Part shown: positions 30,717-62,925 of the stretch, one piece after another | How the letters are laid out: each line of letters opens with the position of its first letter | Numbering within the stretch: position 1 is the first letter of the stretch | DNA from: Patescibacteria group bacterium | Lineage (GTDB): Bacteria > Patescibacteriota > Minisyncoccia > Phycocordibacterales > CSBR16-119 | Assembly (NCBI GenBank): GCA_052033715.1 | Contig: JBPOJJ010000002.1 | Location: 1,676 to 65,675 of the forward strand | Length of the DNA: 64,000 nucleotides | Reading direction: 5' to 3' | The notes under the pieces: model-generated | Seen by the model: the letters and a program-made list of their open reading frames with translations, nothing else | Told to the model about the DNA's origin: nothing | Database searches by the model: none | Position numbers and translations under genes: made by a program

Positions 30717-31193
30717 TTAGAAATTGTCAGCGTAGACGAGAGCCTGATCAATCTTGGTATATGAGAAGATTTCATCCTCGGAGAAGAATCTGGCAACTTC
30801 TTTTGCACCGTTTTCCACAGAATCAGATGCGTGAACGACGTTTGATTGGATAGACATGGCCAAATCACCCCTTATTGTTCCCGCTGGGGCTTCGTAGGCC
30901 TTGGTTGGACCAACAATAATGCGTACTGCGTCCACTGCGCCAATACCCGAAAGCGCCATCACGACGACTGGAGAAGATTTCATAAATGATTTGATACCAG
31001 CAAAGAAAGGTTTATCTTTGATGTGGGAGTAGTGATCCTCGAGCAAAACGTCTTCGAGAGTAAGCATCTTTAGGCCATTGATTTTTAAGCCCTTCTTCTC
31101 GAATCGGCCAATAATCTCGCCAACCAAATTTCTCTGGATGGCGTCAGGCTTCATAATGATAAGGACTTTTTCGTTTTTCGGATGAGTGTTCAT
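30717..31193 (-). CDS. ndk: nucleoside diphosphate kinase
   Basis: 158 aa from ATG at 31193 (MNTHPKNEKVLIIMKPDA...); active-site NVVHASDS; the track ORF extension to 31415 runs into a structured element and is rejected. Confidence 0.85.
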   Translation of the reverse strand: MNTHPKNEKVLIIMKPDAIQRNLVGEIIGRFEKKGLKINGLKMLTLEDVLLEDHYSHIKDKPFFAGIKSFMKSSPVVVMALSGIGAVDAVRIIVGPTKAYEAPAGTIRGDLAMSIQSNVVHASDSVENGAKEVARFFSEDEIFSYTKIDQALVYADNF

Positions 31194-31332: not shown

Positions 31333-31490
31333 AAGCGGAGCAAAACATGCCAGAAAAAGTTTTCAAACGCACCCGCAGTCCTGACGCCAAAGCGGAAGGA
31401 CGTGAGGGGGCGCACCTCTATTTCGACGGGTGTTACTTAGGAGGAATAGGCGCGCTTTTTGAAAACTTTTTCTGGCATGTTTTGCGGAGC
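31333..31490. repeat. structured intergenic element, copy A: conserved core flanked by ~26-bp closing inverted repeat
   Basis: AAGCGGAGC + stem AAAACATGCCAGAAAAAGTTTTCAAA ... core GAAGGACGTGAGGGGGCGCACCTCTATTTC..GTGTTACTTAGGAGGAATAGGCGCGC ... stem TTTGAAAACTTTTCTGGCATGTTTT + GCGGAGC; abuts stop codon of upstream ATPase gene. Confidence 0.6.
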
Positions 31491-34225: not shown

Positions 34226-34234
34226 AACAATATT

Positions 34235-34295
34235 GTATCATGCACCGAAAAAAGTATCTGTAGAAATGAAAGCGCCCCCGCTGTTGGCGGGGGCA
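34235..34295 (-). terminator. putative terminator after pyrC (GCCCCCGC-TGTT-GCGGGGGC) with downstream T-tract
   Basis: 8-bp GC stem; T-run ~20 nt downstream on minus strand; followed by TACAAT-like -10 for the ATPase gene. Confidence 0.4.
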
Positions 34296-34314
34296 CTCAT
34301 CTGCAAAGGGTTCT

Positions 34315-35487
34315 TCAGTCCATTCGATGGGCTGGATCTTCAACATCTTCTGGAATGAGGAGTTCGGGCCTCAAAGCCTCCGGGATGGTGGGCTTCCAAG
34401 ACAGCCTGCTACCTGCCATGAGCGGTGTGATGCCACCATAAGATGGTGGAATTTCCCAACCTTCTTCGCCCGCGTATTCAAGCTCGAACGTGTCATCGTT
34501 CGGCTCCATTCCGTAGATACGTGCACCGTTCGTGACAGTGAAAGCTTCGAATGCTGGATGGTCAAGCCTCATCATCTGGTCGAAAATATAGACCATCAAT
34601 GGCCCCATCACTGGCGAACTGAAAACGCCAGGGCATCCGCAACTGCAGAGCTTTGTCGGATCGAGGTGTGGCGCCGAATCGGGTCCAAGATGGAGCTTGT
34701 TGTATCCTAGTTCATCGGCACGAAGCACCGCTGTAAGCAATGCTTGTTGATCAACGAATGTCTGCACCGGTGGACGACAGTGATGAAATGGGTTGATGCC
34801 AGGATTTCCACCAGCGACCGGCCACTCCAAGACATCGTTACGTGTCATCCAAAGATGCTGCGGGGTAATGCCGCCTGTAATGCACTCCGGCATCTTCAAG
34901 ACCATTTCTAGTGTGCTCGCGGTAGAAATGTGCTCGATGTTGAAACGCACGCCCGGGAATTTCTCAACAAGTCCCAAGAATGCCTCTTCCATGAACACGC
35001 CTTCGCGTGCGTATGTATCGATCTTCTCGCCCGGCTGTTCGCCGTGCAAACAGATGATGAGCTCGCGAGATGCTGCTTTTTCGATCGCAGAGTACATTTC
35101 TTGGAATGAATTCCAAGCACTTCCCTTTTCGTTCGAATTGGTCACACCCTCGGGATAGATCTTGACCGAGCGACCACCGAGGCTTTGAAACGCGGCAAGC
35201 TCTAGTAGATGAGTGTCTTTCACCAGCTTCATCGCAACACTATGCCTCATCTGTGGTGCCCTTCTGTGAAGTTCGCGCCGGTAATTCTGGGAATCAGTCG
35301 CACTGAGAATTGGCGGAGCCGTATTCGGCATCCACACCTCGTGTTGCGCCCACCAAGCAGTGGTCGTTACGGCGGTATGGAAGCGTGGTACAGGCTTTTC
35401 GTTGCCAATCACGTTGCGAGCGTGCCCGTGGGTCTGGAAGAACTTACGGAATTTTCGGCGTTCGCCGATTTGCGGTCGTGTGTTCAT
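34315..35487 (-). CDS. pyrC: dihydroorotase (E. coli PyrC-type, class II)
   Basis: ~390 aa from internal ATG (MNTRPQ...). PyrC motifs WMPNTAPP, ITPQHLWMTRNDV, GPDSAPH, SCGCPGVF, FTVTNGARIYG. ATGA overlap with pyrD stop. GC-rich (~55%). Confidence 0.85.
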   Translation of the reverse strand: MNTRPQIGERRKFRKFFQTHGHARNVIGNEKPVPRFHTAVTTTAWWAQHEVWMPNTAPPILSATDSQNYRRELHRRAPQMRHSVAMKLVKDTHLLELAAFQSLGGRSVKIYPEGVTNSNEKGSAWNSFQEMYSAIEKAASRELIICLHGEQPGEKIDTYAREGVFMEEAFLGLVEKFPGVRFNIEHISTASTLEMVLKMPECITGGITPQHLWMTRNDVLEWPVAGGNPGINPFHHCRPPVQTFVDQQALLTAVLRADELGYNKLHLGPDSAPHLDPTKLCSCGCPGVFSSPVMGPLMVYIFDQMMRLDHPAFEAFTVTNGARIYGMEPNDDTFELEYAGEEGWEIPPSYGGITPLMAGSRLSWKPTIPEALRPELLIPEDVEDPAHRMD

Positions 35488-36446
35488 GCGAAGTTTGGGT
35501 GTTGGTTGATGGTTTTGATGAGTTCTTTCATGCGCCATGGACGCGTGATAGCAGCGGTACCGAGTGAAATGCCTTTGACGCATTTCAATTCAGCAAGCTG
35601 TTCAATATCCTGGACGGATGTAACTCCGCCCCCGGCAATGATCGGCTTTTTGAAGCCGCTATACTCAGCATGTTGAAGCCACTGCAGTGTCGTTCCGAAG
35701 ATTGGTTGTCCTGACAGCCCGCCGCCGCCATACTTTTTGAGAGGCGAGCCGTTTGGGAAATAGGTATGTACACCAGCTTCGGAAATGGCGCCGAATGGAA
35801 GAGTGTTGAAGCAAACAAGTCCAGCGCAAGCCGGATGTTCTTCGATCGCCTTGGCATCTTCAACGGACGTAAGCTGGTTGATCTTGACCAAGATCGGAAC
35901 ATCCAGGCTCGCAAGAACATCCAGAAGCGGCTTCGCAGCTTTTGCGGTCTTCGCTGTATCATGACCAGTATTAGGACAAGACACGTTCAGCTGTACCGCG
36001 AATTTCGTCATAAACCTGGTCTTGTTGACCAGATCTACGAATCCTCGCGCCTGAAATTCCTGCGCAATGGGATCGTCGCCGATCGCCATGAACGAGAGCA
36101 TGAACGGATCACGTCTACGCTGCCAGTGACCTTGTGCAATTAGGTGCGCAACTCCAGGTCCGCTAAGTCCAACCGAGTTCAGAACAAGGTTGTTAACGAA
36201 ATCGACGTGGACCGAATCCGGAAACATCTTCTTCAGGCCGATTTGATTCTCGGTCAATTCAGTATTCCCCTTGTTAGGATTGAATGTCGTCGTCTTGGCA
36301 CAGAACGTCATACCATCGAATGTAAATCCAGGCATGAGTTTGTAGAACGGATGATGGCGGTACTCGGTACCAGCATCACCCCCGAAGAAGCCTTGAACGC
36401 CAGAGGCGCCCACGGCAGGACTGAAGTGGATTCCTCCGATATTCAT
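35484..36446 (-). CDS. pyrD: dihydroorotate dehydrogenase family protein (class 1 DHOD/DHPD-like TIM barrel)
   Basis: 320 aa; NSVGLSGPG, LNVSCPNTGH, GGGGLSGQPI, IIAGGGVTSVQD motifs matching class-1 DHOD; GC-rich. Confidence 0.7.
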   Translation of the reverse strand: MNIGGIHFSPAVGASGVQGFFGGDAGTEYRHHPFYKLMPGFTFDGMTFCAKTTTFNPNKGNTELTENQIGLKKMFPDSVHVDFVNNLVLNSVGLSGPGVAHLIAQGHWQRRRDPFMLSFMAIGDDPIAQEFQARGFVDLVNKTRFMTKFAVQLNVSCPNTGHDTAKTAKAAKPLLDVLASLDVPILVKINQLTSVEDAKAIEEHPACAGLVCFNTLPFGAISEAGVHTYFPNGSPLKKYGGGGLSGQPIFGTTLQWLQHAEYSGFKKPIIAGGGVTSVQDIEQLAELKCVKGISLGTAAITRPWRMKELIKTINQHPNFA

Positions 36447-36518
36447 GGTAGGTGGTTGTGTTTAGTTGTTGTAGGATTGAATCCTTTGCAGATTGTAAAA
36501 GGACTCGTGTCGAGTGGA

Positions 36519-36547
36519 GTATATAGGTTTAGATCAGTTTTTGCAAA
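36519..36547 (-). promoter_or_regulatory. sigma70-like promoter for pyrD-pyrC (TTGCAA-17 nt-TATACT on minus strand)
   Basis: near-consensus hexamers with 17-nt spacer, ~70 nt upstream of pyrD ATG, immediately after map stop. Confidence 0.5.
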
Positions 36548-55860: not shown

Positions 55861-57408
55861 ATGGAAACTCCCACTCCCGCCACTGCGCCTGAGGGTCCGA
55901 AACGGACTTTCGGGCAGCGCTTCTTTGATTTCTTCGAGAAGCTTCCGAGCTACATAGCCGCATTCTTCTCAGCCATCCCCGCGTTCCTCTATCCTGCTTT
56001 CGCTTGGGTCGCCGGTTGCGACCTTGGCACTGTCAAGACGATGCCCTCGGGTGAGCTGAACAAGAAGGCCTCCCTTGGCCTGGCGATGATCTTCACGATC
56101 ACCGTAGCAGCTCTGGCTGCCAGCAATGCAGCCGGCATATTCCTTTCTGAGGAGATGCGTTGGCCGTTTGCAATTCTGTGGGCACTATTGATCTTCAGCA
56201 TCGACCGAATGATCATCGTATCCCTGGACATGCAGAAGGCGGAGGGCAATGGCGGCAAGGGTTTACGTAAAGTCCTGACCGTCGTTTTCCGTTTCATCAT
56301 CATCTTCTTCATGAGCTATATCACTTCGACTTCGGTCGAGATGATCGTGTTCAAGAAAGAGATCGCCAGCGTGATCACGGAAAAGCGCTACGCGGAAAAC
56401 AAGAAGATCAACGCGGAAGCTGATTCAGCTGAAGCGGTGGTCGACACCGCCCGGATCGAAGCCACCATGCAAGTGCGCGCAGCACGCCTGGAAGTGGAGC
56501 GCTACAGCGCGAAACTGGACTCCGAGATCGACACTCTGCAGAAGGAAATCAAATCGCGACGCGACCTGCTCCAAGAGGAGGTTGCCGGCCGAGTTGGTTC
56601 CGGAAAGCAAGGAATGGGCCCAACAGCCAAGGCCATTATGCTCAACATCACTGCGGACTCGACCCGGCTTGCCGTGCTCGAAGCTCGACGTGATTCGGCT
56701 ATCGCAAATTCAACCGCGATAGGTGAGCTCAATGCAGCGGAGGAATTCGCTGCAAAGGCTGTGGTTCGGCTCGACAAGCGAAGCGCGCTGATCAAGGAAG
56801 AACGACTGGCGAAGCTTGCAAAAGTGAGTCACGTCGTCGGTGACGGCTTCATGGACCGCTACCTGGCACTTGGAGAACTCCGAGGAAAGGCATCGTTCAT
56901 CATGATCGTCGTATTCGTCATCCTGATGTTGATCGAATCCTTACCGGTGATCCTTAAGCTCTCATCTAGCGATGGCCTCTACGAGGAAGCGCTCGGGAAG
57001 CAGCTACAGACACACCGAGTACAAGTGTTCAACAAGCAGGAACTCGATCTGGCCACACAAGAAGGTGAGCACCTCGGGAAACTGATCGCAGCCAAAAAGA
57101 TCATAAACGAGCACCAAGGCGCGATCCTGGACAAGGAAGAGGAATACATGACCGACATTGCCACGAAGAAGCACGATCTGGAAGAGGCCCGTCGCACGAT
57201 CATCGCAGCCGAGAACGAAACGGCCATGGCGGTCGCCAGCGAGCGGATGAAAGGCTTGACGGCAAGACTTGATCAGACAGCTGCCTTCATCAATGACGCC
57301 AATGCGAAGCTTGTCAACACGCCGGAGGAGCCGCAGCCAGTGCGCGCGGCAAAGAAGAACGTCCTGCGTCAACTGCTGGACGAAGTGCAGAAGACGGTGT
57401 TGTCGTAA
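55861..57408 (+). CDS. DUF4407-like membrane protein with long coiled-coil region
   Basis: 515 aa. N-terminal TM helices with the ...IFSIDRMIIVSL motif resembling the DUF4407 'DRFIVSS' signature. Extended coiled coil and a second TM block. GC-rich (~58%) versus the flanks. Confidence 0.55.
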   Translation: METPTPATAPEGPKRTFGQRFFDFFEKLPSYIAAFFSAIPAFLYPAFAWVAGCDLGTVKTMPSGELNKKASLGLAMIFTITVAALAASNAAGIFLSEEMRWPFAILWALLIFSIDRMIIVSLDMQKAEGNGGKGLRKVLTVVFRFIIIFFMSYITSTSVEMIVFKKEIASVITEKRYAENKKINAEADSAEAVVDTARIEATMQVRAARLEVERYSAKLDSEIDTLQKEIKSRRDLLQEEVAGRVGSGKQGMGPTAKAIMLNITADSTRLAVLEARRDSAIANSTAIGELNAAEEFAAKAVVRLDKRSALIKEERLAKLAKVSHVVGDGFMDRYLALGELRGKASFIMIVVFVILMLIESLPVILKLSSSDGLYEEALGKQLQTHRVQVFNKQELDLATQEGEHLGKLIAAKKIINEHQGAILDKEEEYMTDIATKKHDLEEARRTIIAAENETAMAVASERMKGLTARLDQTAAFINDANAKLVNTPEEPQPVRAAKKNVLRQLLDEVQKTVLS

Positions 57409-58001: not shown

Positions 58002-58916
58002 CTACCCGTCGAGATCTCCCACTCCCGCCAAGGCAATAGACTGCAAACCATAGACCCTAGCTCTTAGGATCTTGGCAATGTAGTCAGCAAATGCCTCGTC
58101 GTACTCTTGGACAACCTCGAGCACATTCTTGTGAGAGAATTGTGACCCCTCCTGCACTTCCCGAGAATGTCGGCTTTTGTTGGTAACGAGAGACAGAGCA
58201 AGGACCCGACAGCCCATATGATGGAGCGCCAAAGCCTCTGGAACAACAGACATCCCAACCACGTCACCATCTCTCGCGTACTTCCTCACTTCCGCGCGAG
58301 TTTCGATTTGTGGCCCAGGAACTCCAACCAGAATTGTATTCTGGTTGACCTGAACCGTCAGTCTACGACCAGCTACATCACGAGCAAGTTCCTGGTATTT
58401 GAGATCGTAGACCTCTCCGCAATCCAGAAACCTGTCTGGTCCGAAAAGACGAATAGTGTCGACATCTCCCACAAGAGGCGAGACCCCGAGATAACTGCTG
58501 ATGTGATCGTCGAGGATGCAAACCGAGCCCACTTGGTAATCGGTATTGAGTGCACCAACTGCGTTCGTGAGAATGAACTCAGATACGCCCCATTTGGCCA
58601 AGGCTCGCAAATTGGTGACAATGCGATAAGGATCGTAAGCCTCTTCATTGAAGTGTGCCCTTCCTGCCAGCCAGACTACCCTCTCGCCACCAATGACACC
58701 AAGGTAGTACTTACTTTGGTGCCCTTCCGTAACTGGTGTCAGAAAGGGTGTTGGTAGTTCGTCAGACTCCACTTCTCCTTCAAAATGACGAAGGAGATTA
58801 TTCGGTCCCGATGAGCCAGTAATAATGGCAGTTCTGGGAGCGGCTCCAAGGTTTTCTTTGAGCCATTTTACACACTGTTCAACGCTAACGGTATGGTCGT
58901 GCAATGCCGTTGTCAT
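58002..58916 (-). CDS. purine nucleoside phosphorylase (trimeric PNP/MTAP family)
   Basis: 304 aa; PNP-I-like segments (FILTNAVGALN, GMSVVPEALALHHMGCRVLALSLVTN); GC-rich (~53%). Confidence 0.75.
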   Translation of the reverse strand: MTTALHDHTVSVEQCVKWLKENLGAAPRTAIITGSSGPNNLLRHFEGEVESDELPTPFLTPVTEGHQSKYYLGVIGGERVVWLAGRAHFNEEAYDPYRIVTNLRALAKWGVSEFILTNAVGALNTDYQVGSVCILDDHISSYLGVSPLVGDVDTIRLFGPDRFLDCGEVYDLKYQELARDVAGRRLTVQVNQNTILVGVPGPQIETRAEVRKYARDGDVVGMSVVPEALALHHMGCRVLALSLVTNKSRHSREVQEGSQFSHKNVLEVVQEYDEAFADYIAKILRARVYGLQSIALAGVGDLDG

Positions 58917-58960
58917 GGTGGTGGGTTTAGGTGTTGGTTAGGAACGAACGTTACCGAGAA

Positions 58961-58988
58961 AGTCTACTCTTCCTCGAGATTTTGTCAA
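58961..58988 (-). promoter_or_regulatory. candidate promoter for PNP gene (TTGACA-16 nt-TAGACT on minus strand)
   Basis: consensus -35 and near-consensus -10, ~45 nt upstream of start. Confidence 0.35.
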
Positions 58989-58991
58989 AAG

Positions 58992-60257
58992 CTAAACGAA
59001 TTTTTTAGGTATTGGGAATTTCTTCGCCATCTTTTTGATTTCGGCTTTGGCATTACTTAATATCTTTTTATTGTCCTTGTTTCGTAGCACCTCAATCATG
59101 ATTTCAGCGACTCTGGCACAATCTTTTTCCTTGAATCCTCTCGTAGTAATCGCTGGCGTTCCGAAACGTATTCCTGATGGATCCATTGGTTTCCTAGTAT
59201 CGTCAGCGATCGCATTCATATTTAAAGTAATGCCGACTTCGTCGAGAACTGTTTGAGCCTCTTTACCCGTAACGCCAAGCGAACCGAAGACATCAGCGAG
59301 AATTAGGTGGTTATCAGTTCCCCCGGCAATCATACGAATCTTTTCTCTTTTCAAAACTTTCTCCATCGCTTTGGCGTTTTTCAAAATTTGCTTGGCGTAT
59401 TTTTTAAAAGACGGTTTGAGGGCTTCGCCAAAAGCCACGGCCTTGGCTGCCTGGATATGAATGTGTGGACCGCCCTGAAGTCCTGGGAAAACCGCCTTAT
59501 TAATTTTTGAAATAATTTCCTCACTATCGCGAACGAGAATCATGCCTCCGCGCGGACCGCGAAGAGTTTTGTGCGTAGTCGTGGTGATGACATCAAATCC
59601 AGCATCAAAAGGATTGCTAAGTGCGCCACCCGCAATAAGTCCGGCGATGTGCGCCATGTCAGCAACGGTAATCGCACCGACCTCACGCGCGATGGCGACA
59701 AATTTCTTGTAATCCAGATTTCTCGAATACGCGGAAAATCCAGCGAGAATTATTTTTGGTTTTTCGGCGAGCGCTACGCGGCGAAGTTCGGCATAATCAA
59801 TCTCGCCAGTACCTATGTTCTTCATCTTGTACCTGACGAAACGAAAAACTTTGGCCGGAAAAGTTACTGGATGACCATGTGTGAGATGTCCGCCATGAGA
59901 AAGATCCATACCGAGAACCGTGTCACCAGGTTCGAGGAGTGCTGCGTAGACTGCCATATTCGCCGGCGCACCGGAGAGCGGTTGGACATTAGCGTATTTG
60001 CACTTGAAAAGTTTGCAGGCTCGAGCGATAGCGAGATTTTCAACGACGTCAGTAAATTCCTGACCGCCGTAATATCGGCGACCAGGATATCCTTCGGCGT
60101 ATTTATTGGTCAGAACCGAACCCATCGCTTCAAGCACGGCTTGCGAAACATAGTTTTCAGACGGAATTAGCTCCAAGCCCTCGGCTTGGCGTTTCTCTTC
60201 GCCCTTGATGGCATTAAAAACTTCTTTGTCTTGGTTTTGGATGTAGCTTTTTGACAT
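58992..60257 (-). CDS. glyA: serine hydroxymethyltransferase
   Basis: 421 aa; full-length SHMT similarity incl. PLP-lysine region (TTTTHKTLRGPRGG). Confidence 0.95.
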   Translation of the reverse strand: MSKSYIQNQDKEVFNAIKGEEKRQAEGLELIPSENYVSQAVLEAMGSVLTNKYAEGYPGRRYYGGQEFTDVVENLAIARACKLFKCKYANVQPLSGAPANMAVYAALLEPGDTVLGMDLSHGGHLTHGHPVTFPAKVFRFVRYKMKNIGTGEIDYAELRRVALAEKPKIILAGFSAYSRNLDYKKFVAIAREVGAITVADMAHIAGLIAGGALSNPFDAGFDVITTTTHKTLRGPRGGMILVRDSEEIISKINKAVFPGLQGGPHIHIQAAKAVAFGEALKPSFKKYAKQILKNAKAMEKVLKREKIRMIAGGTDNHLILADVFGSLGVTGKEAQTVLDEVGITLNMNAIADDTRKPMDPSGIRFGTPAITTRGFKEKDCARVAEIMIEVLRNKDNKKILSNAKAEIKKMAKKFPIPKKFV

Positions 60258-60346
60258 GAAGGAATTTTAGCATAAATCCAGTACAAGCGAGAAAGCCCCT
60301 TTTTGAGGGGCTTTCCATGTGAGTGAATAAACAGGAATCAGGCGAA

Positions 60347-60643
60347 CTAGTTCGCCCCAACCCAAGTTCGCTGTTCTCGCATCCTGCTGAGCCACAGTGG
60401 ATCTGGAGGAATCCATCCGTAAGACAAAGTGATTCCTGTGACAAACAGAGCGAGTACGCACATCTGTCCAAAGCTCATCGGGAAATTGCCACTTGAGCTT
60501 GAACCATTATTACGATTACCTCCTCCTCCCCGATACGGAGGCTTCCTTTTGGGTGGCCCCAATATGGAGGTCAATTTAGTGGGCTTTCTGTGTACTGTTG
60601 TTCTCCATACACGAACGTTCGAACGTAACTCGGTCGTTGTCAT
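60347..60643 (-). CDS. small hypothetical protein with C-terminal TM helix (doubtful)
   Basis: 98 aa ORF, Gly/Arg-rich, followed by weak hairpin; no homology recognised. Confidence 0.2.
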   Translation of the reverse strand: MTTTELRSNVRVWRTTVHRKPTKLTSILGPPKRKPPYRGGGGNRNNGSSSSGNFPMSFGQMCVLALFVTGITLSYGWIPPDPLWLSRMREQRTWVGAN

Positions 60644-60693
60644 GGTCGCGGGGTTTGAATTGAGGTTACACTAGAATAGCGTTCGTTGTCAAT

Positions 60694-61647
60694 TTAGTTT
60701 TCTATATCTCTTTTCTTTGCTCCCCCGGCGATTGTGAGTTCGCCCTTGATCGTATCGTGTGGATCATAATTTTCAAGTTTAACTTTATCCGCGGTGAAAT
60801 CAATCAATTCTTTGACTGAATCATCTACCGTAAGTGTTGGAAAATTCTTTGGTTCGCGAGAAAGTTGCTCTCGAACTTGATCAAAATGATTTTCGTAAAT
60901 ATGCGCGTCGCCAAATGTGTGAATAAATTCTCCCGGTCTAACACCGAGTATTTTAGCCATAACGACCAAAAGAAGGGCGTAGCTTGCGATATTAAATGGC
61001 ACACCAAGAAACATATCCGCGCTTCGCTGGTAAAGCTGAAGATGCAATCTGCCGTCTTTGATACTCATCTGATACATATTGTGACAAATGGGAAATCGCG
61101 ATGCTTCGTCGGGCTTCGCCATAGCATAGAGATATTCCGGATTCCATGAATTTACGATGACATTTCGAGCGTACAGATCCTCACGAAGCTCTTTGAGCGC
61201 CCAAGCCAGCTGATCCACACCCCGACCGTCTTTGGCCGGCCAGGCGCGCCACATTTCTCCATAAATACGCTTGAGCTCGCCGTGCTGTTTGGCAAAATTT
61301 TCATCGGTTTTTATTTTCTCGACGAATTCTTCTTTGGTCATTTCCGGGAAGCCCTTTTCTTTGTAAATCTTGTACGGATAATCATCCCAAATGTGAACAT
61401 TGTTATCAACCAGATATTTGATATTCGTCTGACCAGAGAAAAACCAATACAACTCGTGCAAAACACCTTTCCAATAAACTTTTTTTGTCGTAATCATTGG
61501 GAAACCCTCTTCAATATCAAACCGGATCTGTCGACCAAAAACACTTTTGGTTACCGCCCCCGTCCCCTCATCGACATTCCTAATACCCGTATCAAGAATT
61601 TCTTTTAGTAAATCTAAATATTGATACTCCGGATGTCTTTTTTCCAT
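60694..61647 (-). CDS. thyA: thymidylate synthase (ThyA, long form with insertion)
   Basis: 317 aa; ThyA motifs incl. catalytic Cys region (PICHNMYQ), LQLYQRSADMFLGVPFNIASYALL. Confidence 0.9.
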   Translation of the reverse strand: MEKRHPEYQYLDLLKEILDTGIRNVDEGTGAVTKSVFGRQIRFDIEEGFPMITTKKVYWKGVLHELYWFFSGQTNIKYLVDNNVHIWDDYPYKIYKEKGFPEMTKEEFVEKIKTDENFAKQHGELKRIYGEMWRAWPAKDGRGVDQLAWALKELREDLYARNVIVNSWNPEYLYAMAKPDEASRFPICHNMYQMSIKDGRLHLQLYQRSADMFLGVPFNIASYALLLVVMAKILGVRPGEFIHTFGDAHIYENHFDQVREQLSREPKNFPTLTVDDSVKELIDFTADKVKLENYDPHDTIKGELTIAGGAKKRDIEN

Positions 61648-61648
61648 A

Positions 61649-62224
61649 TTATTTTTTCTTAGGTTTTTTAATCACCTTTTTAGTTCGAAAATGATCTGAG
61701 TTTTTGCCATCATAACGACCAACACCATCTTTACCGTGATAAGTCTTGCTAGATTCGGTCGCAAGTTCAGCAAAGATGATTTGAGCGATTTCCATACCAG
61801 GACGCAAAATTATCGGCACATTACTAGTGTTTAGAAGTTCAAATGTTGGGAAAAAATGATGCCCGGGATTGAAAAGCATAGCCGTGGTGTGAACAGCGAG
61901 ACCAATTCTGGCGAGTGAGCTCTTACCAGAGAGAAGTATCAGATGTTTGTGATCAACACCAATAAACTCACGCTGCTTACCAAGAACTGTCTCTCCTGTA
62001 TGTAGGATAAAAGCGTCACCGTCTTTTATATTCAAGGTCTTAGTCTGGGGATAAATCTTGTTGGCGGGATCAACGGCTGTGGTCGCATGACGATCAACGA
62101 CTTTAAATTCGTTATCAAGTGTGACGTCATAACTTGCTAGTTGTAATTTTTTATCGGTAAAAGGTTTGATGACGATTTCACCAGTCTTGAGTTTCTTTTT
62201 TATATCTACGTCAGATAAAAACAT
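61649..62224 (-). CDS. dcd: dCTP deaminase
   Basis: 191 aa; dUTPase-fold Dcd pattern (MFLSDVDIKK..., GETVLGKQREFIGV, hinge and C-terminal region). Confidence 0.8.
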   Translation of the reverse strand: MFLSDVDIKKKLKTGEIVIKPFTDKKLQLASYDVTLDNEFKVVDRHATTAVDPANKIYPQTKTLNIKDGDAFILHTGETVLGKQREFIGVDHKHLILLSGKSSLARIGLAVHTTAMLFNPGHHFFPTFELLNTSNVPIILRPGMEIAQIIFAELATESSKTYHGKDGVGRYDGKNSDHFRTKKVIKKPKKK

Positions 62225-62226
62225 AC

Positions 62227-62925
62227 TTATTCTATGTTAAAGACTTTTTCAGTCCCATAATAATCCGGCCAATGTTCATTGTAATACGCAAACATCCGCT
62301 CGATGCGTTCTTGTGGAAGTTCGGCAAGTCCGAAAGATTGCATTTCACCCAAAAGTTTTGCTTTTGTGTCTTCGACACTTTCTCCGTCGCCAATGACAGA
62401 TTCGAACTCCGTCAGATATCCGTAGCCGGCATTTTTGTCTAGAGTGACGTTCATGTTTGGCAAAACATACTCGATTCTTTGTCTGGACCATTTAGCCTGG
62501 TATTGAAATCCAGCTTCCTGTAAAAGTCCATCGAGTTCGCCGAGAGTCAGAGGAACCGCTTCTTCAAACTCCATTCTTGAAACGCCATTCGCGCTCGTGT
62601 CGTCACCGATCGATGCTTTGATAACCAAGAGAACTTTGCCGTCGACTTCGCGAGTGCGCACTGAGAAAGATTTACCCTCCTCGATAATTTCTGCCAAGGT
62701 TTTGTTTTGCTCTTCGTTTAAATGAGAAGAGATTTTTTCTTTTAGAACTTGAAAATCGCCGTTTATGAAATAGTGATTGAGTTGAGAGGTGGCCGGCAAG
62801 ACTTTCGCGTCAGGATATTTGGCAACCAACTTTTCCCGGAAAGCATCGGCGTTCATCTTGTCTCCTAAAAGACATTTGATTTCTATCTCTTTTGATACAG
62901 CCATAGTAGGCCAATTATACTCCAC
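62227..62925 (-). CDS. hypothetical protein, possible CYTH-like (triphosphate tunnel) domain
   Basis: 232 aa; N-terminal EIEIKCLL resembles CYTH ExExK signature; weak. Confidence 0.35.
   Translation of the reverse strand: MEYNWPTMAVSKEIEIKCLLGDKMNADAFREKLVAKYPDAKVLPATSQLNHYFINGDFQVLKEKISSHLNEEQNKTLAEIIEEGKSFSVRTREVDGKVLLVIKASIGDDTSANGVSRMEFEEAVPLTLGELDGLLQEAGFQYQAKWSRQRIEYVLPNMNVTLDKNAGYGYLTEFESVIGDGESVEDTKAKLLGEMQSFGLAELPQERIERMFAYYNEHWPDYYGTEKVFNIE

Follow-up and report, generated by a model that had tools for sequence, protein, structure and literature searches.

Is the pyrD-pyrC pair found in a 64-kb window of Patescibacteria DNA (the window being the whole stretch that was analysed, 64,000 nucleotides) an imported cassette or a native operon, and what would its two products do in such a cell? 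Most Patescibacteria have been reported to lack both redox metabolism and the de novo synthesis of nucleotides (bioRxiv 10.64898/2026.06.21.733656). An earlier note on this DNA had proposed that the pair is compositionally foreign and laterally acquired. Our analysis leads to a different reading: the pair is probably a native, vertically inherited pyrD-pyrC operon of Paceibacteria-type Patescibacteria (CPR), the host group to which RecA assigns the window, and its most likely role is to make orotate for pyrimidine synthesis. The proposed horizontal transfer is not upheld, and the locus is in that respect an ordinary conserved operon for two known enzymes.

Anatomy of the gene pair and its signals

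The upstream gene encodes a protein like dihydroorotate dehydrogenase (DHOD) and the downstream gene one like dihydroorotase (DHOase). Both reading frames lie where the earlier note had put them, and they share the tetranucleotide ATGA at 35484..35487, which holds the stop codon of the first and the start codon of the second; this 4-nt overlap supports the translational coupling that had been suggested. A longer DHOase reading of 422 aa, from an upstream ATG at 35583, was rejected, since every homologue starts at the Met of the ATGA. The flanks, too, are as described before: map (Peptidase_M24), adk and a TraG/VirD4-like ATPase gene, the latter being the T4SS-type ATPase of the note. SLOG, beta-CASP and proS genes are near neighbours in the window.

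Table 1. Coordinates of the genes and candidate signals of the pair within the window
Feature	Position	Strand	Remarks
Promoter-like site TTGCAA-17-TATACT	36518..36547	-	upstream of the DHOD-like gene; 9/12 consensus matches
Leader element	36479..36503	-	holds the local hairpin TCCTTT-N10-AAAGGA (36503..36482) and the 5' arm of the repeat
Inverted-repeat 5' arm ATCTGCAAAGGATTC	36479..36493	-	inside the leader element
DHOD-like gene	35484..36446	-	320 aa; Patescibacteria-type class-1-like dihydroorotate dehydrogenase, Cys catalytic base
Dihydroorotase-like gene	34315..35487	-	390 aa; DHOase of the homodimeric type (class II, as in E. coli), divergent
Inverted-repeat 3' arm GAACCCTTTGCAGAT (gene sense)	34299..34313	-	between stop codon and terminator
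Terminator-like hairpin, GCCCCCGC-loop-GCGGGGGC core and T-rich tail	34260..34298	-	3' of the DHOase gene

These features suggest a transcript with a promoter and an intrinsic terminator of its own, on which translation of the two genes would be coupled. The promoter-like site is present as reported; it had been called near-consensus, but it agrees with the consensus at only nine of twelve positions. Its -10 hexamer TATACT is unchanged in four relatives, and a TTG-type -35 hexamer at equal spacing occurs in three of them (L090, L001 and L091). Promoter-like sites are not commoner in the region than in shuffled sequence (21 against 16.3 +/- 5.1). Taken together, the comparison supports a promoter that would belong to the pair. 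The GC-rich hairpin with a T-tract noticed after pyrC was confirmed: its stem (34298-34270) has 12 bp, nine of them GC, and the fold reaches -35 kcal/mol (z = -5.6). The hairpin is retained, with differing stem sequences, in the same three relatives.

Between these two signals lies a less expected element, an inverted repeat of 11–15 nt that brackets both open reading frames, with one arm in the leader and the other after the stop codon. Within the window, its 11-mer occurs at either end of the pair and at no other place. The repeat is kept in all five relatives, with compensatory and G.U changes in the table of contiguous pairs, and in all five the 3' arm comes directly after the stop codon. 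Both arms are internal to the promoter and the terminator, not outside them. The leader arm stands 27-35 nt 5' of the start codon, with no obvious cover of the ribosome-binding site. The leader element as a whole is the best-conserved block of the upstream spacer in four relatives, and its consensus fold gives only a weak hairpin, in which a single base pair covaries; Rfam gave no match, either across the whole window or in a permissive search of the cassette. RNAduplex applied to the full UTRs over-extends the pairing and does not reach significance in L001 or L091, so we relied on the contiguous-pair table and on a cross-pair control.

Two divergent members of known enzyme families

The gene identities that had been assigned, a DHOD of the class-1 family and a homodimeric dihydroorotase of the E. 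coli type, are upheld, with both proteins standing at some distance from the characterised enzymes. The DHOD-like protein scores 56.9 bits with the Pfam DHO_dh model (PF01180), whose gathering threshold is 27, but stays far under the cut-offs of all NCBIfam PyrD equivalogs. The class 1B models NF005574/TIGR01037 give 58.6 against 269 and 44.9 against 270 bits, the best class 2 model gives 36 against 433 bits, and the class 1A equivalog NF002702 has no match at E <= 0.01. Two relatives likewise stay under the class 1B cut-off, L004 with 72 and L005 with 79.5 bits. The DHOase-like protein reaches 187 bits against the cut-off of 292.95 for TIGR00856 (pyrC_dimer), in an alignment that begins at residue 50. 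As both proteins remain under the equivalog cut-offs, those models do not establish orthology with characterised PyrD and PyrC.

In 32 members of the DHOD-like family K51, N90, N154, C157, N159, K188 and N214 are invariant, as are the motifs GGLSG and GGG, and chain A of 1EP1 has corresponding motifs at the aligned positions. The active-site loop reads N-x-S-C-P-N, as in DHODs, with Cys157 as the catalytic base. An AF2 model of the protein (pLDDT 92.3, pTM 0.91) was compared with the PDB by Foldseek, and the best 50 matches are all DHODs (TM 0.56-0.72). Among the best 60 listed PDB profile matches 59 are DHODs and one is a tRNA-dihydrouridine synthase, with no dihydropyrimidine dehydrogenase (DPD).

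The class 1B PyrD of Lactococcus lactis (DHODB, 1EP1) is the nearest characterised enzyme by sequence, profile (E 4e-21 for the family profile) and fold (TM 0.64-0.72). Common to both are the FMN TIM barrel, the elements LN-x-x-GL, N-x-S-C-P-N, VK, N-T, GGLSG and GGG, and the Cys base. The two are nonetheless only 22-23% identical, and the family has an N-terminal ASG-x-x-GFFG-x-G and a C-terminal RPW of its own. The L. lactis type also differs in its partner: no gene for a PyrK-like (FAD/2Fe-2S) subunit is a conserved neighbour here. None lies beside the window pair, whose neighbours are map and the DHOase gene, and clustering of the neighbours in 74 loci gives no conserved third gene. Class 1A (fumarate) and class 2 (quinone) DHODs share the fold and the substrate-binding residues, and class 1A also the Cys base. 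Class 1A scores lower with the profile, however, at about 42 bits for the trypanosomatid enzymes and at most 26 for L. lactis DHODA. Class 2 reaches at most 34 bits among PDB entries and uses a Ser base in place of the Cys, and the window protein lacks the N-terminal membrane-associated extension of that class.

By sequence comparison the DHOD-like protein falls into a family of its own, well separated from others and centred on Patescibacteria. This family is sizeable: clustering at 50% identity gives about 500 groups (495 cluster representatives match at E <= 1e-30), and at least 380 loci were counted among GTDB species representatives; a word-index search returned 522 matches, almost all from Patescibacteria or unnamed organisms. 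Relatives are nearly all patescibacterial and about 34-45% identical, the best match on a genome contig among the matches listed having 43% identity. The NCBI PyrD models do not name the family, and many of its members are deposited as "hypothetical protein". Since these models miss it, metabolic reconstructions that deny pyrimidine synthesis to Patescibacteria may overlook it. We found nothing in the literature specific to a described DHOD or DHOase of Patescibacteria.

For the second protein, dihydroorotase models are the sole matches. Over nearly the full length it shares 29-33% identity with the E. coli, Yersinia and Vibrio enzymes of solved structure. Against E. coli PyrC (1J79/1XGE) the residues H20/H22, K109, H148, H186 and D270 align with H16/H18, K102, H139, H177 and D250, and R24, N55 and H274 correspond to R20, N44 and H254, the residues that bind the carboxylate of the substrate. 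The ligands of the binuclear zinc centre (H-x-H, carboxylated Lys, two His and Asp) vary little or not at all within the window-type clade. Unlike E. coli PyrC, this clade carries insertions after H-x-H-x-R and before the HHCRPP segment and has a C-terminal tail of about 25 residues; in the window protein another residue stands in place of the flexible loop's second Thr. In a neighbour-joining tree of Kimura distances the clade is a monophyletic long branch with a bootstrap of 100; its sister group has a support of 28, which does not place its origin. It is patchy (about 16 clusters) and always lies 3' of a DHO_dh gene, also in three further unrelated contexts. These partners are of three different kinds of DHO_dh gene, and the copy in L005 sits between ftsA and ftsZ.

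Descent of the pair

The case for a foreign origin was built on base composition. The pair had been put at about 55% GC and map among genes of 40-45%; the measured values are 52.3% for the pair (51.1% and 53.2% for its genes) and 49.0% for map, with a window mean of 43.9% (z = 2.5). Nor is the pair a unique GC-rich stretch. It ranks second in the window, behind a DUF4407 gene (55861..57408) with 55.6% GC and a GC3 of 0.68. The GC excess of the two genes is +0.098 and +0.077, and their amino-acid content alone predicts +0.058 and +0.037, about half of it. The synonymous GC residual that is left (+0.040 for both, z 1.5) does not exceed that of map (+0.045) or rpsR (+0.057), with adk at +0.029, so the pair can hardly be called foreign in composition. 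Where the background GC of a relative is higher, the pair is no outlier. The raised GC would reflect proteins rich in Gly, Ala, Pro and Arg together with a local synonymous shift common to native neighbours, not recent import.

Synteny points the same way. When the presence of the cassette was checked in related contigs, the same pair was found in L001, L090, L091 and L093, at the same site between adk-map and the TraG-like gene and each time with the 4-nt overlap. In L001, L090 and L091 the pair is 72-87% identical to that of the window, and the flanking map and TraG-like genes are 72-87% identical as well. The agreement holds gene by gene: for L001 the values are 74% (DHOD), 73% (DHOase), 76% (map), 80% (adk) and 76% (ATPase), and for L090 84%, 87%, 87%, 80% and 87%. 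Compared with the same Patescibacteria genomes, the map, adk, ProRS and ATPase proteins of the window span an identity range equal to that of the DHOD-like protein. A shared site in four relatives, divergence that tracks the flanks and a synonymous signal no higher than that of native neighbours all speak against lateral acquisition, and what the earlier note had itself named as evidence against a foreign origin is essentially what was found.

An older event has also to be weighed, in which an ancestor of this small clade would have received the pair, or at least its unusual DHOase, as a two-gene cassette, be it from a different Patescibacteria group or from an outsider, with vertical inheritance ever since; the repeat and the residual GC excess would be its relics. 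We regard this as unlikely. It draws on the GC contrast (52% against 44% in the window, at the z-score given above), which loses force in that the synonymous signal does not rise above native map and rpsR, and on the TraG/VirD4-like ATPase that adjoins the pair, which is itself syntenic in the relatives. The repeat lies exactly at the ends of the pair and nowhere else in the window, as the termini of a cassette might, and could be a relic of mobility; it sits, however, inside the promoter and the terminator, and the borders of the pair show no integrase, transposase, flanking direct repeat or target duplication. The patchy, long-branch distribution of the window-type DHOase beside three kinds of DHO_dh gene would also suit such an entry. 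On the other side, close relatives share the site and diverge in step with its flanks, no donor lineage is identifiable, and the nearest relatives of the DHOD-like protein are Patescibacteria at a housekeeping-like distance. Vertical inheritance of a native operon accordingly stays our preferred reading.

Beyond the close relatives, the DHOD-like gene is found in varied company. A class-II DHOase gene is present in 36 of 80 genome loci and lies directly downstream on the same strand in 32; one of these DHOase neighbours scores above the equivalog cut-off for PyrC (321 against 293). Further genes of the pathway occur within 10 kb in some loci, namely pyrF in 10 and pyrE/PRT in 7 of the 80, and in one Nitrospirota genome the DHOD-like gene is followed by pyrF (221 against 193) and then by a pyrE-like gene. 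The pairs of loci such as L066, L030 and L043 combine the same DHOD-like family with a downstream gene in the same order and strand and with short or overlapping spacing, but their second gene is a canonical PyrC, about 30% identical to the window DHOase; pairs of this kind are without the leader/post-stop inverted repeat. We also considered whether adk, map, TraG-like, SLOG, beta-CASP and proS genes keep a residual synteny with the DHOD-like gene elsewhere. This idea was dropped, as 9 scattered co-occurrences in 80 loci compare with about 28 estimated by chance for 20-kb loci in genomes of about 0.8 Mb.

Role of the pair and of its repeat

From the retained residues and the genomic partners we infer both the activities and the biosynthetic direction. 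The zinc-dependent dihydroorotase would interconvert N-carbamoyl-L-aspartate and dihydroorotate, and the FMN-dependent class-1-like DHOD, with its Cys base, would oxidise dihydroorotate to orotate, both being divergent, lineage-specific versions of known enzymes. The earlier statement that only two pyrimidine-pathway genes are present stands for de novo synthesis, as tblastn detected none of pyrB, pyrE, pyrF and carAB in the 64-kb window; for pyrimidine nucleotides at large it goes too far, as ndk, dcd, thyA and a PNP_UDP_1 phosphorylase gene are also there.

The catalytic domain of DPD/PreA shares the DHO_dh fold and the Cys acid/base, and it had been suggested that the DHOD-like protein acts as a dihydropyrimidine (dihydrouracil) dehydrogenase in salvage or catabolism. 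The amidohydrolase would then be a dihydropyrimidinase, and the gene order would suit two consecutive catabolic steps. We find this hardly credible: residues that bind orotate and carbamoyl-aspartate are kept, among them the DHOD-type loop and Arg24, Asn55 and His274, fold and profile matches are to DHODs with none to DPD, the amidohydrolase matches dihydroorotase models only, and the partners elsewhere are pyrC, pyrF and pyrE. A stand-alone shunt in a cell that lacks the rest of the pathway is improbable, though less so. Here the pair would turn carbamoyl-aspartate or dihydroorotate of a host into orotate, or run in reverse from orotate through dihydroorotate to carbamoyl-aspartate, as in orotate-fermenting clostridia; in that direction orotate would take up electrons for a redox-poor cell. 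The reactions of DHOase and of class 1B DHOD are both reversible, no PyrK partner is conserved at the loci examined, and the reported metabolic gaps of most Patescibacteria would fit. The pair is also the only de novo set in the 64 kb, and most of the 80 related loci are without pyrE or pyrF within 10 kb; absence from 64 kb, however, says little for a genome of several hundred kb. Moreover, the extra genes that are linked elsewhere are those of the next biosynthetic steps, pyrF and pyrE, and no ureidosuccinase or carbamate-kinase gene lies next to the pair. Synthesis of orotate for pyrimidines is the most likely role on this evidence.

A class 1B-like family without a conserved PyrK partner raises the question of how redox-poor cells reoxidise the flavin. 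We may speculate that the Patescibacteria-type DHOD is a PyrK-independent class-1 kind with another acceptor, which together with the remodelled DHOase forms a self-contained two-step module, either making orotate from host carbamoyl-aspartate or dihydroorotate or using orotate as an electron sink. The bicistronic mRNA would be controlled by pairing between leader and post-stop arm, in competition with the leader hairpin. We give this combined proposal a low probability, and any functional novelty of the family, of the missing PyrK or of the repeat would be a suggestion from sequence, not a demonstrated property.

Base pairing between 5'-UTR and 3'-UTR does occur in bacterial mRNAs, for example in icaR of Staphylococcus aureus. 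The window pair resembles this case in having a conserved post-stop stretch complementary to the leader of the same transcript; it differs in that its leader arm does not obviously cover the ribosome-binding site, and the likeness is one of sequence alone. RNA pairing, a double operator site in the DNA or the remains of terminal repeats would each explain the same data. The repeat may be a small regulatory device, and as a conserved element that brackets both reading frames it keeps the locus from being wholly routine.

Identity of the encoded proteins

Between map and a gene for a TraG-like ATPase lie, on the minus strand of 34235-36547, two overlapping genes, a dihydroorotate dehydrogenase (DHOD)-like gene, the stop codon of which shares an ATGA with the start codon of a dihydroorotase (DHOase)-like gene; the coordinates and the overlap are exactly as the earlier note had them, and its observation is largely real, with overstated figures. 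A longer DHOase-like frame from an ATG at 35583 was rejected, since that start is used by none of the homologues.

Coordinates of features in the window
Feature	Position	Strand	Remark
DHOD-like gene	35484..36446	-	320-aa ORF
DHOase-like gene	34315..35487	-	390-aa ORF
adk, map			one flank of the pair
TraG/VirD4-like P-loop ATPase, then ndk			other flank; ATPase 911 aa
15-nt inverted repeat, leader arm	36479..36493
15-nt inverted repeat, second arm	34299..34313		between stop codon and terminator
Extended -10-like motif	34232-34240	-	6 nt upstream of the ATPase ATG
28-nt perfect inverted repeat	31340-31367 / 31458-31485		ndk/ATPase spacer; arms 90 nt apart
DUF4407 gene	55861-57408	+
Nucleotide-metabolism genes	58002-62904, 30717-31193, 1665-2309

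The DHOD-like protein exceeds the threshold of Pfam DHO_dh (56.9 bits, threshold 27) and stays far under the cut-off of every NCBIfam PyrD model, scoring 58.6 (cut-off 269) with the class 1B-type equivalog and 36 (cut-off 433) with the best class 2 model, and not matching the class 1A model. Its relatives make up a large, well-separated family. A word-indexed search returned 522 matches, the named ones being hypothetical proteins of Patescibacteria lineages and a few Nitrospirota; GTDB species representatives hold at least 380 loci, and 1.84 billion representatives contain 495 clusters (50% identity, E <= 1e-30). Residues K51, N90, N154, C157, N159, K188, N214, GGLSG and GGG are invariant in 32 family members and align with KT, LN-x-x-GL, N-x-S-C-P-N, VK, N-T, GGLSG and GGG of Lactococcus DHODB PyrD; in class 1 DHODs these positions correspond to the Cys base and to the residues that bind FMN and orotate. 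The best 50 PDB matches of the AlphaFold model (pLDDT 92.3) are all DHODs, class 1B PyrD first (TM 0.64-0.72), and the family profile ranks class 1B PyrD first (E 4e-21), class 1A second and class 2 third. Although class 1B PyrD is nearest, a PyrK-like gene is no conserved neighbour in the 74 loci clustered. Two representatives of ~750 aa (P0315, P0348) are matched by the profile in two separate stretches, as an inserted intein or a gene fusion in this family could explain.

Dihydroorotase models are the sole matches of the DHOase-like protein, the best being homodimeric TIGR00856 (187 bits, cut-off 293); its identity to class II DHOases of known structure is 29-33%. Aligned with E. coli PyrC, the protein retains every metal ligand and every substrate-binding residue (H20/H22, K109, H148, H186, D270, R24, N55, H274), and the window-type clade adds specific insertions and a C-terminal tail.

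A class II DHOase occurs in 36 of 80 genome loci holding the DHOD-like gene, in 32 of those 36 directly downstream on the same strand and often overlapping; one of these DHOases scores above the PyrC equivalog cut-off (321, cut-off 293). Of the 80 loci, 10 have pyrF and 7 have pyrE or a related phosphoribosyltransferase within 10 kb, and in a complete Nitrospirota genome the DHOD-like gene is followed by pyrF (221, cut-off 193) and a pyrE-like gene, in that order. Dihydroorotase is the sole consistently conserved partner, and the occasional further ones encode the two reactions that follow on the way to UMP, which supports the prediction of DHOD and DHOase activities for the pair. The same partners argue against a dihydropyrimidine dehydrogenase/dihydropyrimidinase pair, and the catabolic role once proposed for the DHOD-like protein is not supported; dihydropyrimidine dehydrogenase is absent among the 60 listed profile matches of the family. 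The window-type DHOase also follows DHO_dh genes of different subtypes in three further, unrelated contexts (loci L005, L087, L088), in L005 between ftsA and ftsZ. One distant relative (L088, 4139-4759, and L089) has a LAGLIDADG_3 homing-endonuclease-like gene directly upstream of such a pair.

Inheritance and base composition

Four related metagenomic contigs (L001, L090, L091, L093) carry adk, map, 0-2 small ORFs, the DHOD-like and DHOase-like genes and the TraG-like ATPase gene, all four with the 4-nt overlap. In the three for which identities were computed, those of the pair match those of its flanks; since these genomes last shared an ancestor, the pair has thus changed at the pace of the genes around it.

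Identity of proteins in related contigs to their window counterparts
Contig	DHOD-like	DHOase-like	map	adk	TraG-like ATPase
L001	74%	73%	76%	80%	76%
L090	84%	87%	87%	80%	87%
L091	76%	72%	72%	48%	73%

By its RecA, the organism falls within Paceibacterota/Minisyncoccia-type Patescibacteria (named matches 78-80% identical). Identities of the DHOD-like protein to other Patescibacteria (35-45%) lie in the same range as the 41-57% that map, adk, ProRS and ATPase of the window show in those genomes. The small ORFs (L001 9390-9878; L091 1425-2179; L093 950-1186), one or two per relative, of 78-166 aa and without Pfam or NCBIfam match, have no counterpart in the window, so the map/DHOD-like spacer is a variable spot.

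The pair measures 52.3% GC (51.1% and 53.2%; window mean 43.9%, z = 2.5) rather than the ~55% claimed, and map 49.0% rather than 40-45%. We divided the GC of each gene between what its amino acids predict, with codon usage set to the window average, and what is left over at synonymous sites, the residual: the DHOase-like excess over the window mean of +0.098 divides into +0.058 and +0.040, the DHOD-like excess of +0.077 into +0.037 and +0.040 (both residuals z about 1.5). Among native neighbours, map (+0.045) and rpsR (+0.057) exceed this residual, and adk has +0.029, so the description of the pair as compositionally foreign is not supported. In relatives of 47-50% background GC the pair has 49-53% and is no outlier. 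The window's strongest compositional outlier is the DUF4407 gene (GC 0.556, GC3 0.68, synonymous residual +0.091), and a foreign origin is more plausible for it than for the pair.

The shared site in four relatives, a divergence that tracks the flanks and a residual not above that of native genes all speak against the lateral acquisition that the earlier note had put forward. We consider it probable that the segment represents a pyrD-pyrC operon inherited within the lineage, encoding two known enzymes in divergent forms specific to Patescibacteria. An ancient transfer to the ancestor of the window clade is unlikely; it would apply especially to the odd DHOase, whose window-type relatives (~16 clusters) form a long-branch, monophyletic clade with 100% support, but whose placement among other DHOases was not recovered in the tree.

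Transcription signals and inverted repeats

The proposed promoter, TTGCAA-17-TATACT in the 104-bp spacer following map, has the hexamers and spacing described; it matches at 9 of 12 positions and is weak taken alone, because such sites are not enriched around the pair (21 against 16.3 +/- 5.1 in shuffles). Its -10 hexamer is invariant across three related contigs, with a TTG-type -35 at the same spacing. The terminator proposed after pyrC was borne out as a 12-bp hairpin (9 G-C pairs) with a T-rich tail (folding z = -5.6 against shuffles), retained in relatives although the stem sequences differ. Conservation of these signals makes the pair credibly a transcription unit of its own. Upstream of the TraG-like ATPase gene, TGATACAAT, the TACAAT of which is conserved among relatives, suggests that this gene is transcribed separately, from a promoter of its own, into an mRNA with little or no leader.

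A 15-nt inverted repeat (14/15 complementary) brackets both ORFs. Its 11-nt core occurs in the window, L090 and L093 only at the two arms or their equivalents. Complementarity is retained in all five related sequences, with 11 contiguous Watson-Crick pairs in the window, L090, L093 and L001 (the last with compensatory changes in both arms, CTGC/GCAG to TTAC/GTAA) and 13 contiguous pairs, three of them G.U, in L091. In 31 other Patescibacteria pyrD-pyrC operons the longest complement averages 6.1 (cross-pair control 5.9) and none reaches 9. The repeat could serve 5'-3' pairing within the mRNA, provide a protein with two binding sites, or be a remnant of terminal repeats; we lean slightly to RNA because of the G.U pairs, on a small set of five related sequences. 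The leader arm can alternatively form a local hairpin, TCCTTT...AAAGGA.

The 28-nt repeat belongs to a 146-nt unit (fold -74 kcal/mol, z = -9.3). The equivalent L001 spacer has just 32 bp, so the unit has the appearance of a structured RNA or of an insertion resembling a MITE. Across window 1-64000, ARAGORN found no tRNA genes and no Rfam family reached its gathering threshold.

Pathway context

As claimed, pyrB, pyrE and pyrF are missing from the 64-kb window, and according to a recent preprint 93% of Patescibacteria genomes are without de novo nucleotide synthesis, such genes being scattered (10.64898/2026.06.21.733656). The pair may therefore serve, from the most to the least likely, a complete pathway, a two-step shunt supplied with intermediates by the host, or the reverse direction, in which orotate is reduced. 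Elsewhere the window encodes a PNP_UDP_1 phosphorylase, glyA, thyA, a dCTP deaminase-like protein, a CYTH-domain protein, ndk and an HD/YfbR-like putative 5'-deoxynucleotidase, and thus dTMP synthesis and nucleoside salvage functions beside pyrD and pyrC.
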